The notes beneath the pieces were generated by a model. It ran no database searches and had not been told where the DNA came from. It saw only the letters and a list, made by a program, of their open reading frames with translations. A stretch of 64,000 bases of DNA from Escherichia coli (lineage in GTDB: Bacteria; Pseudomonadota; Gammaproteobacteria; Enterobacterales; Enterobacteriaceae): assembly GCF_003019035.1 (NCBI RefSeq), contig NZ_CP027447.1; one strand, written 5' to 3'. Positions 7,036-64,000 of this stretch are shown here, piece by piece; the first letter of the stretch is position 1; each line of letters begins with the position of its first letter. The position numbers were made by a program, and so were the translations under genes.

Positions 7036-7400
7036 GAGTCGCCGCCTGTGAAAAACTTTCGTGTATCGTGACAATTTTTCGTCAGAGTAAATAACAAAAT
7101 TCGGCAAGCGCGTTTAAAAGGTGAGGTAGATCACTAAGAATGGAGAGATATTTTATGTTAAGAAAAAAAACATACATTGTATGAATATAAACGGGAACCA
7201 ATAAGTTTTGTTTATCATATGTACTACAACATCTTTTAATAATCCCTCGAATCACCCGACGTTGTATTTTTAATAATTAGCAGAATACATATTTAATGTA
7301 CTGTTGTATTCTGAAAAATATTATTATCTTCACCCCATTTAAAATACATCTTACGCGATGATTTTATTCAGGAAATAAATAAAATGGATGGATCCCTGGA
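7036..7400. promoter_or_regulatory. Divergent AT-rich control region: eut operon promoter (minus strand, upstream of eutS) and promoter/leader of the inserted glycosyltransferase gene (plus strand)
   Basis: Non-coding, very AT-rich stretch between divergent genes; the eut main promoter lies upstream of eutS in enterobacteria; exact -35/-10 elements not assigned. Confidence 0.5.
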
Positions 7401-8471
7401 ATGAAAATTCACTACCTTGTCACCACCCTCGAAGCGGGAGGCGCTGAATTTGCGATTCCTGATATTGTGACTACTCTGCAAGACCTTGGTCATGAGGTGA
7501 AAATTTATGTCTGTGAACCCCGCGATATGGGAGCAGCGCCTCGTCTGGAAGCCGCTGGATTATCCTGGTGTTTATTATCAAATCGGCGGCGTTCTGAACC
7601 CATGCTTGTAGCTGCTTATCTGGCAAAAATCATTCACGACAAACCCGATCTCATCTGGACTTCGTTAAGTTGGGGGACTCGTATTGGGCAATGGGTCGGC
7701 CGGCTTATGGGCATTCCTGTTATCAGTTTTAAACATAGCGCCAGCGTAAAACCAGCGACCTGGCGTATGCGCAACATGTCTCGTTTATGGATAGGAGATT
7801 CTGAAACCGTAGCTCAATACCTGCATGAAACCATGTTGATCCCGAAGCAACAAGTGCTGTGCTGGCCCTTTTTTCAGGCGAATCCGCAAGCTGCCCAAGC
7901 GCAAAACTGGGACGGGAAATCAGTTTTACAATTAGGCTCTGTTGGACGCCTGCATGAAGTTAAAAATTACGCTGGATTAATTACAGCACTCGCTTCGTTT
8001 GTAGATAAAAACCCGCAATTGCGCTCGCGAATCCGATTAACCATTCTCGGTGAAGGGCCTGAACAGGAAGCATTGCAAAAAACCATAACGCAACACGCGT
8101 TGGAGGATGTGGTTTGTTTAGCGGGTTTTTCTGCGGATGTCGAAAATTTTCTTGCCGGATTACATGTCTACATCCAGACCTCCCGCTACGAAGGGATGTG
8201 CCTCGCTGCACACGAAGCCATGAATGCAGGGCTTGCAATCATCACGACTCCTGTAGGCGAACTTAAAGAATCGGTAATAGATGGTCATACTGGATATACG
8301 CTTAATGGCGAGCTAACGCCAGCGCTGGAGGGTGTGCTTAACCGTATTTTAAGTGAACCCGAAGAATTAGAACGCTATGGGCAAAATGTGCGGCAGTATG
8401 TATTAGCGAAGTTCAGCCATGAAAATTTTGTCCAGTCTGCAATCAACATCGTCAATAGACTTATTCACTGA
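7401..8471 (+). CDS. GT-B fold glycosyltransferase (GT4-like), accessory gene
   Basis: 356-aa ORF; C-terminal retaining-GT signature (SRYEGMCLAAHEAMNAGLAIITTPVGELKESVIDGHTGY, an E-x7-E-like motif); no signal peptide; weak ribosome-binding site. Confidence 0.8.
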   Translation: MKIHYLVTTLEAGGAEFAIPDIVTTLQDLGHEVKIYVCEPRDMGAAPRLEAAGLSWCLLSNRRRSEPMLVAAYLAKIIHDKPDLIWTSLSWGTRIGQWVGRLMGIPVISFKHSASVKPATWRMRNMSRLWIGDSETVAQYLHETMLIPKQQVLCWPFFQANPQAAQAQNWDGKSVLQLGSVGRLHEVKNYAGLITALASFVDKNPQLRSRIRLTILGEGPEQEALQKTITQHALEDVVCLAGFSADVENFLAGLHVYIQTSRYEGMCLAAHEAMNAGLAIITTPVGELKESVIDGHTGYTLNGELTPALEGVLNRILSEPEELERYGQNVRQYVLAKFSHENFVQSAINIVNRLIH

Positions 8472-24211: not shown

Positions 24212-24573
24212 AACAACCTCTCTTATAATTATGGGTATTCTACGGAAACAATATACCGTGGTGAAGCTAATTTACTCGATTGCTGCGATGACTACCTCCG
24301 GGGGACAAACCTTATGTAAATACTATGGTCCTGCGGTGATAATTTGTATGTGATACACAGCAACATTTCGAGATATTCATACGGCATCTAATACTGATTT
24401 AATTCTGGTTAAAATACAGACAGATAACAAGATGAATATTCTTAATGTTTACGTTAAAAATGTTTAATGTTATTTAATAGTTGTTAATTTGAATACTTCG
24501 ATAATGTTATATTTCCTGATAATCATTTGCAGGCAAAATGTTTTCACCCTTAAATGAGTATTTATTCTCATAA

Positions 24574-24948
<375 letters not shown>

Positions 24949-34264: not shown

Positions 34265-34377
34265 TTACTTTGCTCCATTCCGTGCTGGCTGCGCTTGCGG
34301 TCAGCACACCTCACTTCTCGTGATCAAGATCACATTCTCGCTTTCCCCTGCGACACGGGTGTCGAATCCATTTATTG

Positions 34378-34413
34378 CTGAACGTTAATGACCATCATTT
34401 TTGTACCGTTCAG
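34378..34413. promoter_or_regulatory. Candidate upstream activator site for hyf (inverted repeat CTGAACGT ... CCGTTCAG)
   Basis: Inverted repeat about 50-80 bp upstream of the sigma-54 element; a second palindrome CGACACGGGTGTCG lies at about 34349-34362; assignment to HyfR/FhlA is inference. Confidence 0.35.
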
Positions 34414-34459
34414 AATCCAGTTAACACATAAATTATTGAATATATTAAATTAATCAGAC

Positions 34460-34475
34460 TGGCATCCTTTATGCA
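34460..34475 (+). promoter_or_regulatory. Sigma-54 (-24/-12) promoter of the hyf operon
   Basis: TGGCATCCTTTATGCA: GG and GC dinucleotides 12 nt apart, matching the TGGCAC-N5-TTGCA consensus; about 42 bp upstream of the hyfA ATG; consistent with sigma-54 activator HyfR in the operon. Confidence 0.65.
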
Positions 34476-34516
34476 ATATGAAATGCAATGTTTCATATCA
34501 TTTTCAAGGAGCCGAC

Positions 34517-35134
34517 ATGAACCGCTTTGTGGTGGCCGAACCACTGTGGTGTACAGGATGTAATACCTGTCTCGCTGCCTGTTCGGACGTGCATAAAACG
34601 CAAGGTTTACAGCAACACCCGCGCCTGGCCCTGGCGAAGACGTCAACACTCACTGCCCCTGTCGTGTGTCATCACTGTGAGGAAGCCCCTTGCCTGCAGG
34701 TCTGCCCGGTCAATGCCATCTCCCAGAGGGACGATGCGATCCAACTCAACGAAAGCCTCTGTATTGGCTGCAAGCTTTGCGCCGTGGTCTGCCCATTTGG
34801 CGCAATCAGCGCTTCAGGAAGCCGTCCGGTGAATGCCCCTGCGCAATATGTTTTTCAGGCTGAGGGCTCACTCAAAGACGGCGAAGAAAACGCGCCAACC
34901 CAACATGCTTTGCTGCGCTGGGAACCGGGTGTCCAGACCGTCGCGGTGAAATGCGACCTGTGTGATTTCTTGCCAGAAGGTCCGGCCTGCGTTCGCGCTT
35001 GTCCGAATCAGGCGTTACGGCTGATCACCGACGATAGCCTGCAACGTCAGATGAAAGAAAAACAGCGCCTTGCCGCAAGCTGGTTTGCCAATGGCGGGGA
35101 GGATCCCCTTTCCCTCACTCAGGAGCAACGCTAA
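34517..35134 (+). CDS. hyfA: Hydrogenase-4 component A (4Fe-4S ferredoxin-type)
   Basis: 205 aa from MNRFVVAEP with AAGGAG ribosome-binding site; multiple CxxCxxCxxxCP motifs. Confidence 0.93.
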   Translation: MNRFVVAEPLWCTGCNTCLAACSDVHKTQGLQQHPRLALAKTSTLTAPVVCHHCEEAPCLQVCPVNAISQRDDAIQLNESLCIGCKLCAVVCPFGAISASGSRPVNAPAQYVFQAEGSLKDGEENAPTQHALLRWEPGVQTVAVKCDLCDFLPEGPACVRACPNQALRLITDDSLQRQMKEKQRLAASWFANGGEDPLSLTQEQR

Positions 35135-54230: not shown

Positions 54231-54290
54231 CAAAAAAAATCGACGGATTATACCTCCTTTCTTCAAGGCGGCAATATTATTTTCGTTGAC
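54231..54290 (-). promoter_or_regulatory. upp promoter with T8 initially transcribed tract (UTP-sensitive reiterative transcription)
   Basis: Minus strand reads TATAAT-CCGTC-GATTTTTTTTG; perfect -10 hexamer at 54247-54252 and the GATTTTTTTTG start region described for upp. Confidence 0.7.
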
Positions 54291-54449
54291 TTTAGTCAAA
54301 ATGATAACGGTTTGAGATAAAGTTATTTTGTATTCAAATGGTTATGGAAGAAGATTATTCCATCCGAAAACGATCCTTTGCCCTGGTACAAGTATTCTTT
54401 TGCCGCGCGCCTGGGGAAAAGACGTGCAAAAAGGTTGTGTAAAGCAGTC

Positions 54450-56375: not shown

Positions 56376-59988
<3,613 letters not shown>

Positions 59989-59994
59989 TGCTTT

Positions 59995-60021
59995 GCGGGC
60001 CGACGAGAAATGTCGGCCCGC
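59995..60021. terminator. Bidirectional hairpin terminator between convergent ppx and pdeF
   Basis: Perfect 10-bp stem GCGGGCCGAC / GTCGGCCCGC with 7-nt loop. Confidence 0.6.
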
Positions 60022-60026
60022 ATTAT

Positions 60027-62270
60027 TCAGGCACTTTCGCGAATGGGTTCGATTTCATTCAGCGTATCAATTAACGGTTGCGGCTTACCAATAAGATAAC
60101 CCTGCATATAATCGATCCCCAAAGAGAACACCGCCTCGCGGATCTCTTCGTTTTCAACGTACTCTGCCACTACCCGCATTTTCTTCATTCGCGCCAGGTG
60201 GCAAATCGACGCCACTATCTGATAATCCAGACTATTTGACACAATATTGCGGATAAAACTGCCGTCAATTTTAAGCAAATCGGCATTCACATTTTTAAGC
60301 CGCGCATAGCTGGCATAGCCGGTGCCGAAATCATCAATCGCAATCTGGCAGCCTAATTCCTGAAGATGCTGCAAGGTGATTTGCGCCTGCTTAACATTTG
60401 TCAGAGCATTACTTTCGGTGACTTCAAAAATAAGTTGCCACGCTTCAATTTGATATTTAGCCAGCAGCTGACTGACTTCAACGGGAAAACGAGCCTGACA
60501 TACCGAGGTTGGCGACAGATTAATCGCAAAACGGTGAGCGGGCATCTTCGCTCTGTTTTCAGCCATAAATTGCAGCGTATGCTCAATGACCCACATGTCG
60601 ATACTCGACGATAAACCAAATTCGTGCGCGACCGGCAAGAAGCTGTCGGGGCTGATCAGTTCATCATTCTCACCTTTCATGCGCAGAAGAATTTCATGGT
60701 AAACATCACCACGCATACCGGTAATCGGCTGGGCCATCAGGAAAAAATGGTTGTGTTCCAGCGCCTGCTGTAGCCGATTCATCATCGCGACTTTATCTTT
60801 CAATTCGCGTTGCAAATACATTGCCCCGCGACGCTGCATATTTTCCGGGGCGTTGGTCACGATGGAAAGCTCGGCGACCGTATTTAGCTCTCCCAGCAGC
60901 AGGTAGATATGATTCACTGGCGAGCGCACATAGCAGTAACTGACGCCAATCTGCGGTTGCATCGGCATTCCATCCCAAAAGAAACGAAATTGCTTGAGAT
61001 GGCTATCCAGTTCGGTAATGCGCTCCTGGTGCGATTCTGTATTCAGTCGCAGCGCGAGATCGTTACCCGAAAGCTGATAAACATCTTCACCCGGTTCCAG
61101 CAAGGGTGACAGCCAGTGAGAAAGTTTTTGCTTGTATTGAATCCGTAGCATGATGCCATAGTTCTTAACCAGCATTTCCATTCCAGGGATGCGTAAATAA
61201 CAAAGCGCAGACCAGGGGGCATCACGCAACGCGCGATTCAGGGCGCGAACATTTGGCAGATGAACCACCGGGTCCACATACGCAAGCCGCTGAATGCGTC
61301 TGACTACCGCTCGCTGACGGGTTGCCAGTACAGCCATATAATTGACAATAAAAGAGAATACCAGATAACTGGAGGAGGTTATGGTCAGCTGCGTGGTATA
61401 GCCAGGATAAATGGGAATGTAATTTTGATAGCTGTGGATGCTGATCATCAACACGACCGCCCAGAGCAATGAAATCAGCTTATAACCATAGCGCATCGCT
61501 CCCCACATCATCAGGGGCAGCAATAATGACAAGGTATAGTTGGTGCTAAAAATTGTGCTTTTTTCATTTAACGGCATGCATAACAGCAACAACAACGCAC
61601 CTAATGCCAGTAGCCAGAGCGCGAACTCTTTTTTGGTGACTTTGACATCAACCTGCTGTTTTAATTGCGAATAATAGCTGCGTAAATAACACGGATTTCG
61701 CACCACTCGAATGATGAAGTAGCACAGCGGGACACCGATCAGATTACCCACCAGTAAGGCCTGATAATTGATTAATGTCCCGAGGTTAAAAGGCATGACG
61801 CCGACCAGATTTTCTCTACTCGCCAGTAATCCTACAAACGCAGCAAACTGGAAAAGTATCAGAAACAGCGTTGCAGGAAACACAATCTGCCAGAATATAC
61901 GCTGGGAAATTAAACGGGTATCACCATGTGAAACGTTGTTACGCCGGGGAGTAAAGACCCTGTAACCGCCCCAACAGAGAATGATAATGATAATAAAATT
62001 AGCCGTTAATGAGAGCGTTTCGTAAAAACCCAGCTCTGCATATTTGCGGACAAAAATCCCTAAGGCGATCCCTGGCAATGCCGCCCAGCTGAAAAACATC
62101 ATCATGCTGATCATCAGTGCCAGAGGCAGATAAAAGAGAAAAACCTCACCGGAAGAAATATGCGCGAAAGTATTGATGTGGCCGAAAATGGGCAAGATTA
62201 AAGAAGGCAGGAACAGCGGAAGCCCCCACCATTTATCACGTATTTTTATATAAGTTGCATTCAGTTTCAT
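60027..62270 (-). CDS. pdeF: c-di-GMP phosphodiesterase PdeF (YfgF; membrane MASE1, degenerate GGDEF, EAL)
   Basis: 747-aa ORF with N-terminal membrane domain and C-terminal EAL domain. Confidence 0.92.
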   Translation of the reverse strand: MKLNATYIKIRDKWWGLPLFLPSLILPIFGHINTFAHISSGEVFLFYLPLALMISMMMFFSWAALPGIALGIFVRKYAELGFYETLSLTANFIIIIILCWGGYRVFTPRRNNVSHGDTRLISQRIFWQIVFPATLFLILFQFAAFVGLLASRENLVGVMPFNLGTLINYQALLVGNLIGVPLCYFIIRVVRNPCYLRSYYSQLKQQVDVKVTKKEFALWLLALGALLLLLCMPLNEKSTIFSTNYTLSLLLPLMMWGAMRYGYKLISLLWAVVLMISIHSYQNYIPIYPGYTTQLTITSSSYLVFSFIVNYMAVLATRQRAVVRRIQRLAYVDPVVHLPNVRALNRALRDAPWSALCYLRIPGMEMLVKNYGIMLRIQYKQKLSHWLSPLLEPGEDVYQLSGNDLALRLNTESHQERITELDSHLKQFRFFWDGMPMQPQIGVSYCYVRSPVNHIYLLLGELNTVAELSIVTNAPENMQRRGAMYLQRELKDKVAMMNRLQQALEHNHFFLMAQPITGMRGDVYHEILLRMKGENDELISPDSFLPVAHEFGLSSSIDMWVIEHTLQFMAENRAKMPAHRFAINLSPTSVCQARFPVEVSQLLAKYQIEAWQLIFEVTESNALTNVKQAQITLQHLQELGCQIAIDDFGTGYASYARLKNVNADLLKIDGSFIRNIVSNSLDYQIVASICHLARMKKMRVVAEYVENEEIREAVFSLGIDYMQGYLIGKPQPLIDTLNEIEPIRESA

Positions 62271-62621
62271 AGATGCTCAGCAGAATCCCCCACATCCTGA
62301 AGGAGGTGTATTCAGACAGGCATCCCACCTGACTTCGAATGATGATTATTCATCACTATAGAGAGCATTGATTCTAAGTGTCATATGAAAGTTCCAATTG
62401 ATATATATCAAACAAAATAACCCTGATTAATGAATTATTACGTTTATCATGTTAATTCATCATTATTACATCATCATTGTAAATAATTAAATTAACTTCC
62501 ATAACATTAAAATATGTATCCACTGACGCTTTTTTACATAACGAAGAATTGACCATTTTGTCCTGTTGTGCCTTAATGTAAGTACCGTCCACAGCGTGGG
62601 ACATACTTCAAGGAACCTTTT

Positions 62622-62813
62622 GTGAGTCAGGCAACCAGTATGCGAAAACGACACCGATTTAACAGTCGCATGACCCGTATCGTACTGCTCATCAGCTTTA
62701 TCTTCTTCTTTGGCCGTTTTATCTACTCGTCCGTCGGTGCATGGCAGCACCATCAGAGCAAAAAAGAAGCTCAGCAATCCACACTCTCCGTCGAATCACC
62801 GGTACAACGTTAG
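62622..62813 (+). CDS. yfgG: Small membrane protein YfgG
   Basis: 63-aa ORF MSQATSMRKRHRFNSRMTRIVLLISFIFFF; probable GTG start. Confidence 0.8.
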   Translation: MSQATSMRKRHRFNSRMTRIVLLISFIFFFGRFIYSSVGAWQHHQSKKEAQQSTLSVESPVQR

Positions 62814-63123
62814 CGGTTACCTTCTCCACTTTCACAGAACATAACGGCACCTCGCTGTCGGATGCTTTTGCTCTTTGGGATTATCAAAGCGGCAGATATT
62901 CTTTCATCTTAAATTTTACGTCTTTGTCCTGACTGATGTTTATCCTGTTTGGCTGCGAAATAAATATAAAATTAATACATATGTTTTAATGATGTATTTT
63001 TATAAATTATTTTCCACATGAATTTTAATAAATTTAATCTATTCCTTTATACGCAATACATTTACTTTCCTCTTTTGATGATCTTAAATGTCTTATTTTT
63101 CGTAATGTGTATAACAAGGAATA

Positions 63124-63642
63124 GTGATGAAATTTAAAAAATGTCTTCTGCCTGTGGCAATGTTAGCGTCATTCACTCTGGCAGGATGCCAGTCAAATGC
63201 TGATGATCATGCCGCCGATGTTTATCAAACCGATCAACTGAATACCAAACAAGAAACTAAAACCGTTAATATTATTTCCATTCTTCCCGCAAAAGTTGCC
63301 GTAGACAACTCCCAAAATAAACGAAACGCACAAGCCTTCGGCGCGCTTATTGGTGCAGTCGCTGGCGGTGTAATCGGCCACAACGTGGGGTCTGGCAGCA
63401 ATTCCGGAACGACGGCAGGTGCAGTTGGCGGCGGAGCTGTTGGCGCGGCAGCGGGTTCTATGGTGAATGATAAAACCTTAGTGGAAGGTGTTTCTCTAAC
63501 GTATAAGGAAGGCACCAAAGTGTATACCTCCACCCAGGTGGGTAAAGAGTGCCAGTTTACGACAGGTTTAGCCGTTGTTATTACCACGACGTATAACGAA
63601 ACGCGTATTCAGCCAAATACCAAATGTCCTGAAAAGAGCTAA
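63124..63642 (+). CDS. yfgH: Outer membrane lipoprotein YfgH (glycine-zipper)
   Basis: 172-aa ORF with lipobox LAGC and Gly-rich zipper (GALIGAVAGGVIGHNVG). Confidence 0.9.
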   Translation: MMKFKKCLLPVAMLASFTLAGCQSNADDHAADVYQTDQLNTKQETKTVNIISILPAKVAVDNSQNKRNAQAFGALIGAVAGGVIGHNVGSGSNSGTTAGAVGGGAVGAAAGSMVNDKTLVEGVSLTYKEGTKVYTSTQVGKECQFTTGLAVVITTTYNETRIQPNTKCPEKS

Positions 63643-63657
63643 TAATCAGGAGGAGTC

Positions 63658-64000
63658 ATGAAGAAAGTTTTTCTTTGCGCCATCTTAGCCTCCTTAAGCT
63701 ATCCGGCTATCGCCTCATCATTGCAGGATCAACTCTCTGCTGTCGCAGAAGCGGAACAGCAAGGTAAAAATGAAGAGCAAAGGCAGCATGACGAATGGGT
63801 CGCGGAGCGCAACAGGGAAATCCAGCAAGAGAAGCAACGTCGCGCAAACGCCCAGGCCGCCGCTAACAAAAGAGCGGCAACGGCAGCGGCAAATAAGAAA
63901 GCTCGTCAGGATAAACTGGACGCCGAAGCCTCTGCGGACAAAAAACGCGATCAAAGTTATGAAGATGAGCTACGCAGCTTAGAGATTCAGAAACAAAAAC
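63658..64000 (+). CDS. yfgI: Periplasmic protein YfgI, partial (N-terminal part; continues beyond window end)
   Basis: ATG at 63658 preceded by AGGAGT; MKKVFLCAILASLSYPAIASSLQDQ signal peptide; open to the window end so absent from the ORF track. Confidence 0.8.
   Translation, partial: MKKVFLCAILASLSYPAIASSLQDQLSAVAEAEQQGKNEEQRQHDEWVAERNREIQQEKQRRANAQAAANKRAATAAANKKARQDKLDAEASADKKRDQSYEDELRSLEIQKQK

Follow-up and report, generated by a model that had tools for sequence, protein, structure and literature searches.

AT-rich blocks flanking yfgG in Escherichia coli: a conserved divergent promoter region and the probable 5′ flank of a yfgHI insertion

The two AT-rich blocks that flank the small gene yfgG in Escherichia coli are probably ordinary transcription-control DNA with different histories: the upstream block would be an ancestral divergent control region, and the downstream block the 5′ flank of an insertion that carries yfgH and yfgI. 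The upstream divergent control region is kept across Enterobacteriaceae, and published promoters, together with published data on Nac, H-NS, σS, and PgrR, make this block a known, multiply bound divergent promoter region. Both blocks lie near the end of the 64,000-nucleotide stretch of DNA that was analyzed, which we refer to as the window, where open reading frames (ORFs) and RefSeq annotations identify the E. coli ppx-pdeF(yfgF)-yfgG-yfgH-yfgI region (Table 1). An earlier note on this DNA had described gaps of about 350 and 310 bp around a 63-codon yfgG, with pdeF divergent, and the ORFs and RefSeq annotations agree with it on each of these points. The product of yfgG is a 63-aa membrane protein implicated in nickel and cobalt tolerance (PMC6338753), and its family is DUF2633. 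A 1.2-kb query around the gaps matched 5424 of 5426 complete E. coli genomes at 95 to 100% identity. For comparison across genera, we used 37 YfgG-encoding loci from across Enterobacteriaceae, in which the flanking genes were located and the pdeF-yfgG gaps aligned. Window coordinates equal MG1655 (U00096.3) coordinates minus 2,566,668, and 1,977 was added to coordinates that papers give on U00096.2, with a possible error of 1 nt.

Table 1. Features of the ppx-yfgI region in window coordinates. Identities were measured against the window; L004 and L006 are E. coli clades, and L003 and L005 are E. albertii / Escherichia sp.
Feature	Position	Strand	Details
ppx	58447-59988	+	ORF list
pdeF	60027-62270	-	ORF list, RefSeq; ATG at 62270
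Upstream gap	62271-62621		351 bp; pdeF to yfgG
pdeF 5′ leader	62271-62363	-	~93 nt, from inferred start ~62363 to ATG 62270
Hairpin C, CCUCC...GGGGG	62306-62287	-	loop holds second GGA, 62297-62295
Hairpin A, CAGG-UGGGAUG-CCUG	62331-62317	-	loop holds first GGA, 62325-62323
Alternative σ70-type pdeF promoter, ATGACA-18-TATAGT	62355-62384	-	promoter scan
pdeF -10, TAGAAT	62371-62376	-	at -13 to -8 from inferred start; class II FNR promoter
FNR box, TTGATATATATCAA	62398-62411		perfect fit to TTGAT-N4-ATCAA consensus; sequence, PMC3718329
AT-rich inter-promoter spacer	62412-62548		GC ~23%; length near-constant across genera
ATAACATTAAAATAT	62501-62515		fits ATA-N9-TAT; within second conserved island
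TTTTTTACAT	62530-62539		conserved island in gap alignment
yfgG -35, TTGACC	62549-62554	+	within invariant ATTGACC
yfgG extended -10, TGc-CTTAAT	62569-62577	+	within invariant TGTGCCTTAAT (TGn + CTTAAT)
yfgG start site, A	62584	+	7 nt past -10
yfgG	62622-62813	+	GTG start (conserved), 63 codons
Downstream gap	62814-63123		310 bp; yfgG to yfgH
Weak terminator-like hairpin and T-rich tail	62845-62875	+	after yfgG; retained with base changes in E. albertii
Downstream AT core	62900-63055		GC ~24%, minimum 14%; fastest-evolving segment of locus; identity 76-79% (L004, L006), 45-47% and effectively unalignable (L003, L005)
Conserved yfgH-proximal island	63056-63126	+	from the identities
Last 70 bp before yfgH			identity 97-99% (L004, L006), 74-75% (L003, L005)
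Candidate yfgH promoter, TTTACT-17-TTAAAT	63061-63066, 63084-63089	+	predicted only, conserved
yfgH ribosome-binding site, AAGGAA	63116-63121	+	
yfgH	63124/63127-63642	+	ORF list
yfgI	from 63659		ORF list
Flanking coding sequence			identity 92-96% (L004, L006), 75-98% (L003, L005)

The AT-richness of both gaps is real and not a matter of chance. Their GC content is 34% upstream and 30% downstream, compared with 52.4% for the window, in which 100-bp segments have a mean GC of 0.524 and a standard deviation of 0.068. The lowest 100-bp value is 0.18 in the upstream gap and 0.14 in the downstream gap, the latter being the lowest in the entire 64 kb, over 5 standard deviations under the mean. GC drops under 30% in just six blocks of the window, including the two beside yfgG; the other four, also at 100-bp resolution, are found at 7088-7415, 24339-24636, 34359-34522, and 54258-54375. 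Compared with the window average, TpA steps are three times as frequent in the gaps, and A/T tracts are enriched, most strongly downstream. The description of the gaps as strongly AT-rich holds for their cores, at about 62340-62540 and 62900-63120, each with 24% GC over ~200 bp, but not for their margins (62271-62340, 62541-62621, and 62814-62899), where GC is an ordinary 44 to 50%. Both cores are AT tracts of at least 100 bp lying well under the genome GC, as is looked for in H-NS regions.

On its pdeF side, the upstream gap contains a promoter known from the literature. The yfgF promoter is class II and FNR-dependent, with TTGAT--ATCAA at -41.5 and the -10 element TAGAAT (Lacey et al. 2010, as cited in PMC3718329), and the pdeF start site and the dependence of transcription on FNR and anaerobiosis are likewise taken from literature cited in that paper. 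The FNR box is present in 34 of the 35 upstream gaps, window included, at 118 to 144 bp from the pdeF ATG. Its center at 62404.5 puts the inferred pdeF +1 at ~62363, with the box at -41.5, and TA-AAT of the -10 element is kept across genera in the gap alignment. The promoter scan also returned an alternative σ70-type promoter for pdeF, with hexamers and spacing identical to those that RpoD genomic SELEX assigns to yfgF (PMC3946193). Set against other class II FNR promoters, the pdeF promoter is that published promoter and shows no difference; what we add to it is how widely it is conserved and how constant its distance to the divergent yfgG promoter is. An IS5 insertion, at -104/-245, has been reported in a gallium-evolved line (PMC6928379), and the IS5 target CTAA corresponds to 62374-62377, overlapping the pdeF -10 element.

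On the opposite strand, the yfgG promoter is also documented. RpoD genomic SELEX gives TTGACC-17-CTTAAT for yfgG (PMC3946193), and σS ChIP-seq identified a peak with a validated yfgG start site at 2627275 (PMC4447067). The peak converts to 62409-62708 and the start site to 62584, possibly off by 1 nt, so that both hexamers, the 17-bp spacing, and the mapped start of a σ70/σS promoter are all in place. The -35 and extended -10 elements are near-invariant across genera, and the gap alignment shows that the yfgG leader and ribosome-binding site are conserved as well. The earlier note had considered these gaps the probable site of the promoters of a c-di-GMP phosphodiesterase and an envelope lipoprotein. 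The upstream gap does hold the pdeF promoter (literature cited in PMC3718329) and the yfgG promoter (PMC3946193; PMC4447067), both conserved across genera, but not that of yfgH, which would instead lie in the downstream gap.

The spacer between the two promoters includes partly conserved AT-rich islands at ~62436-62455 and ~62478-62544 in the gap alignment. Within the second island, ATAACATTAAAATAT fits ATA-N9-TAT, which we take to be a form of the Nac site. The Klebsiella and Kluyvera counterpart of this sequence is a perfect 16-bp palindrome, AACATTAATTAATGTT, and the palindrome is centered at ~-76 from the yfgG start site. ChIP-seq placed an intergenic Nac peak at 2627183 (old coordinates), and yfgG was up 138-fold on Nac induction (PMC5217608). 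The peak converts to 62492 in the window, with the conserved palindrome 16 bp away, and we consider the palindrome at 62501-62515 to be a probable site for Nac or another LysR-type activator. A PgrR SELEX match also falls in the yfgF/yfgG spacer (PMC5934670).

In vitro genomic SELEX marked an H-NS site in this spacer, and the same RpoD study lists the yfgF/yfgG spacer among its type-A spacers with H-NS, with both promoters and the H-NS mark (PMC3946193). The high-affinity H-NS motif TCGATAAATT, allowing up to 2 mismatches, gave 66 matches compared with 57 expected, which is no enrichment. The upstream block resembles type-A H-NS spacers and H-NS-silenced regions in its AT-rich core and in having received IS5 and IS1 insertions. 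It differs from other H-NS-bound regions in that it is ancestral and length-constrained and not foreign DNA, and its H-NS mark was obtained in vitro. The IS1 insertion is that of the E. albertii type strain NBRC 107761 (L003:1-269), where IS1 replaces the AT-rich spacer, with its end 9 bp upstream of the yfgG -35 element; the contig stops within IS1. The proposal that the blocks are bound by nucleoid proteins is supported upstream by the genomic SELEX site for H-NS (PMC3946193), whereas downstream it is base composition that points to such binding.

A simpler reading of the AT-rich cores is that they are functionless, mutation-biased filler between functional elements, with the downstream core being an insertion scar. 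The absence of enrichment for any specific motif fits this reading, but the dimensions of the upstream spacer do not. In 27 of 33 lineages, 149 to 151 bp separate the FNR box from the yfgG -35 element, the whole pdeF-yfgG gap is ~350 bp in most genera, and the GC content of the inter-promoter spacer stays low across genera (median 28%) though much of its sequence varies. The retention of this spacing and of low GC while the sequence varies argues for constraint, and both the length and the composition of the upstream spacer seem to be constrained, which would be atypical of filler DNA, although the flanks of the compared loci offer no similar gap as a yardstick. In vitro binding of H-NS, Nac, and RNA polymerase has also been reported in the upstream spacer. 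Taken with the downstream evidence described below, we regard functionless filler as improbable. The constant FNR-box-to-(-35) distance (62398-62554) suggests a constraint on spacing or on helical phase.

A spacing of 149 to 151 bp across about ten genera, despite variable sequence, would also be compatible with one nucleoprotein complex linking the two genes. We raise this only tentatively, as part of a combined proposal that we think rather unlikely: such a complex, for example an H-NS or Nac bridge or a loop, would couple pdeF and yfgG, and the pdeF leader would in addition receive a CsrA input that has not been described before.

The second part of this proposal comes from the pdeF 5′ leader, which is conserved across genera in ~30 enterobacterial lineages, with a conserved island at 62271-62330 in the conservation profile and alignments. 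The leader contains two GGA motifs ~28 nt apart, in the loops of hairpins A and C. The first GGA is found in nearly all sequences, with G15 and A16 invariant and G14 at 90% or more, the exceptions being K. indica and Siccibacter. Most sequences have the second, which lies in the loop of a hairpin in ~19 of 33 minimum-energy folds. CsrA-bound leaders carry GGA motifs in short hairpin loops, as a rule two for each target. The pdeF leader is alike in having two GGA motifs, each in a small hairpin loop, and their distance falls in the 10- to 63-nt range expected between CsrA sites. The second GGA site in E. coli, UUCAGGAUGU, resembles what we take to be the CsrA SELEX consensus. The leader differs from CsrA targets in that neither GGA overlaps the ribosome-binding site: repression by CsrA usually involves a site over the ribosome-binding site or start codon, and here the nearest GGA is ~25 nt before the AUG.

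Support from covariation for the two hairpins is modest. Some compensatory changes occur in the stems of Franconibacter helveticus (CCTC/GAGG), a soil MAG, L026 (AGCC/GGCT), and an E. coli clade (CCTT/AAGG). The pair counts exceed the controls modestly, with 76 to 78% of cells paired compared with 28 to 62% when partners are slid, and the covariation score was reached by 4 to 6 of 500 shuffles, a level that is possible without structure. The fold of the whole leader is no more stable than its shuffles (z = -0.28). A covariance model built from the leader (R1) has the pdeF leader as its sole match in the window, at 78 bits. Many minimum-energy folds also include a long-range helix that pairs GGAUGC of the leader with GCAUCU directly before the AUG; we do not claim this helix because the changes in Superficieibacter, Enterobacter sp. 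CC120223-11 (L025), and the soil MAG (L026) are non-compensatory. The supplements consulted from an E. coli CsrA CLIP-seq study contain no entry for pdeF/yfgF, a gene whose anaerobic expression may have left it unsampled there, and we found no published link between CsrA and pdeF. The architecture of the leader resembles CsrA sites, and we treat it as a lead and not as a finding.

The gaps had been described as having no ORFs. The ORF list does contain mechanical ORFs of 27 to 50 aa in them, and one of these, at 62452-62604 on the minus strand, is annotated by PGAP as the hypothetical protein WP_000017552.1 in many E. coli RefSeq genomes, though not in MG1655; what stands of the description is that none of the gap ORFs is conserved and none matches Pfam. 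The small ORFs of the downstream gap are disrupted even between Escherichia clades. If the 50-aa ORF encoded a real protein, its frame should be kept in orthologous loci. It is unbroken in three Escherichia genomes, which together with the RefSeq annotations speaks for a gene, but none of the non-Escherichia genera retains the start codon, and in all of them stops or frameshifts interrupt the frame. With the missing MG1655 annotation and the lack of a Pfam match, this makes a genuine 50-aa protein extremely improbable. The DNA beneath the ORF is preserved because the ORF runs antisense over the conserved yfgG promoter. Given this position and the loss of the frame outside Escherichia, the PGAP entry is probably a false gene call.

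The downstream gap has a different history from the upstream gap. Of the 37 loci compared, only those of Escherichia and C. amalonaticus contain yfgH-yfgI; in the other loci yfgG is followed by guaA at 65 to 370 bp or by other cargo. The yfgG-guaA gap of Citrobacter, Enterobacter sp., and Franconibacter ends in a strong bidirectional terminator, AAAAAACCCTCTG...CAGAGGGTTTT, and the same terminator is found after yfgI in E. coli (L001:3596-3694 compared with L008:2687-2812). The position of the terminator after yfgI in E. coli indicates that yfgHI and the AT-rich block were inserted between yfgG and the ancestral terminator. Because yfgG and guaA share the terminator in other genera and E. coli has it behind yfgI, the yfgG-guaA interval appears to be a variable cargo site in which inserts differ by genus.

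Within the downstream gap, the AT core contains no conserved ORF, RNA, or repeat, and it has acquired indels between Escherichia species. A search for repeats and tandem repeats yielded nothing more than short chance matches in AT-rich sequence and, at 62962-62999, an imperfect palindrome, which is not conserved outside E. coli. The core diverges faster than all of the DNA around it, as filler or an insertion scar would. However, E. albertii and C. amalonaticus retain the low GC of the downstream block (29 to 31%) despite the sequence being unalignable, which counts against filler here as well. We therefore return to transcription-control DNA as the preferred reading, under which the downstream AT core is most likely an H-NS-type silencing or insulating spacer. 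As in the xenogeneic silencing by H-NS of AT-rich flanks of acquired genes, the downstream block adjoins an insertion of two genes confined to few lineages, has 76% AT, and changes rapidly, and relatives of YfgH are carried by small plasmids as well. The block departs from that system in that yfgH and yfgI are not very AT-rich (GC 47 to 50%), and the presence of H-NS is inferred from composition. A weak FlhDC SELEX peak maps to ~62943 (PMC9962212). The S. Typhi orthologues of yfgHI are regulated by SdiA, while an E. coli fusion is not.

The identities recover toward yfgH (Table 1), and the conserved island next to the gene holds a candidate promoter and a ribosome-binding site. The promoter scan did not call this candidate because its -10 element, TTAAAT, does not have the canonical A at position 2. 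A promoter in the yfgG/yfgH spacer is absent from the RpoD SELEX list (PMC3946193), and the supplements of that study have no entries for the genes of this locus. The ATG at 63127 is better spaced to the ribosome-binding site than the annotated GTG at 63124, and the presence of GTA at the GTG position in C. amalonaticus, which leaves that species no start other than the ATG, makes the ATG the likelier start. The true start of yfgH is thus probably the ATG at 63127.

Small RNAs had also been suggested for these spacers. Long non-coding spacers can hide small RNAs, and the downstream gap does contain a weak hairpin with a T-run at 62845-62875 and minus-strand promoter-like hexamers at 62942-62913 and 62907-62880. 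However, an Rfam scan of 59800-64000 at E-values up to 10 returned only chance matches to eukaryotic and archaeal families, promoter-like sites in the gaps number 4 compared with 4.7 expected in shuffles, and they form no promoter-terminator pair. A terminator scan of the gaps found none besides the weak one after yfgG, and the segment 62800-62950 folds no better than its shuffles (z = -0.40). In addition, no segment is less conserved than the downstream core, which differs by indels between Escherichia species, and promoter and activator sites account for what is conserved in the upstream spacer. Neither block thus combines a promoter and terminator of its own with conserved sequence or structure, and we consider it very unlikely that one or both encode an unannotated small regulatory RNA; this part of the earlier description found no support.

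The product of yfgH, beyond its glycine-zipper 2TM domain, has a sub-threshold Pfam match to the complement-resistance lipoprotein TraT at residues 61-157 (window 63307-63597), with E = 2e-6 and 28 bits against a cut-off of 31. Homologues of YfgH with ~76% identity are found on ~196 plasmid records from E. coli and Salmonella, the records listed being ~7.5 kb. In one plasmid, pYLMB10c (NZ_CP073991.1, L040:3956-4519; ColRNAI-type replicon), the gene adjoins a phosphoethanolamine transferase gene and IS1; the IS1 end is directly upstream of the YfgH homologue, with no counterpart of the AT-rich block.

Together, these elements suggest how the region could function. Leftward, FNR bound at 62398-62411 would activate the class II pdeF promoter, through its TAGAAT -10 element, in anaerobiosis. 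Rightward, the σ70/σS extended -10 promoter (TTGACC-17-TGc-CTTAAT) would start yfgG at 62584 and would be boosted from upstream sites, chiefly the Nac-type palindrome at ~-76. The AT-rich DNA between the promoters would carry these upstream sites, and H-NS binding there would damp both promoters. The yfgH-yfgI pair would have entered between yfgG and the old terminator of yfgG/guaA, with the downstream gap as its 5′ flank. Constraint in that gap would apply only to the last ~70 bp, with the yfgH promoter and ribosome-binding site, while the AT core drifts freely.

The main parts of this picture, namely the FNR promoter of pdeF, the σ70/σS promoter of yfgG, and the binding of Nac and H-NS, are already published, and in that respect the analysis matters little. 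Its modest new points are the constant interval from the FNR box to the -35 element of yfgG and the two conserved GGA motifs in hairpins of the pdeF leader. The insertion of yfgHI with its AT-rich flank would have parted yfgG from its ancestral terminator, which bears on how YfgH, a lipoprotein that has only lately come under study, is expressed. Leads for c-di-GMP regulation come from the constant spacing and from the pdeF leader with its GGA motifs; if the resemblance of the leader to CsrA sites proves true, there would be a CsrA input to pdeF, an anaerobic c-di-GMP phosphodiesterase.
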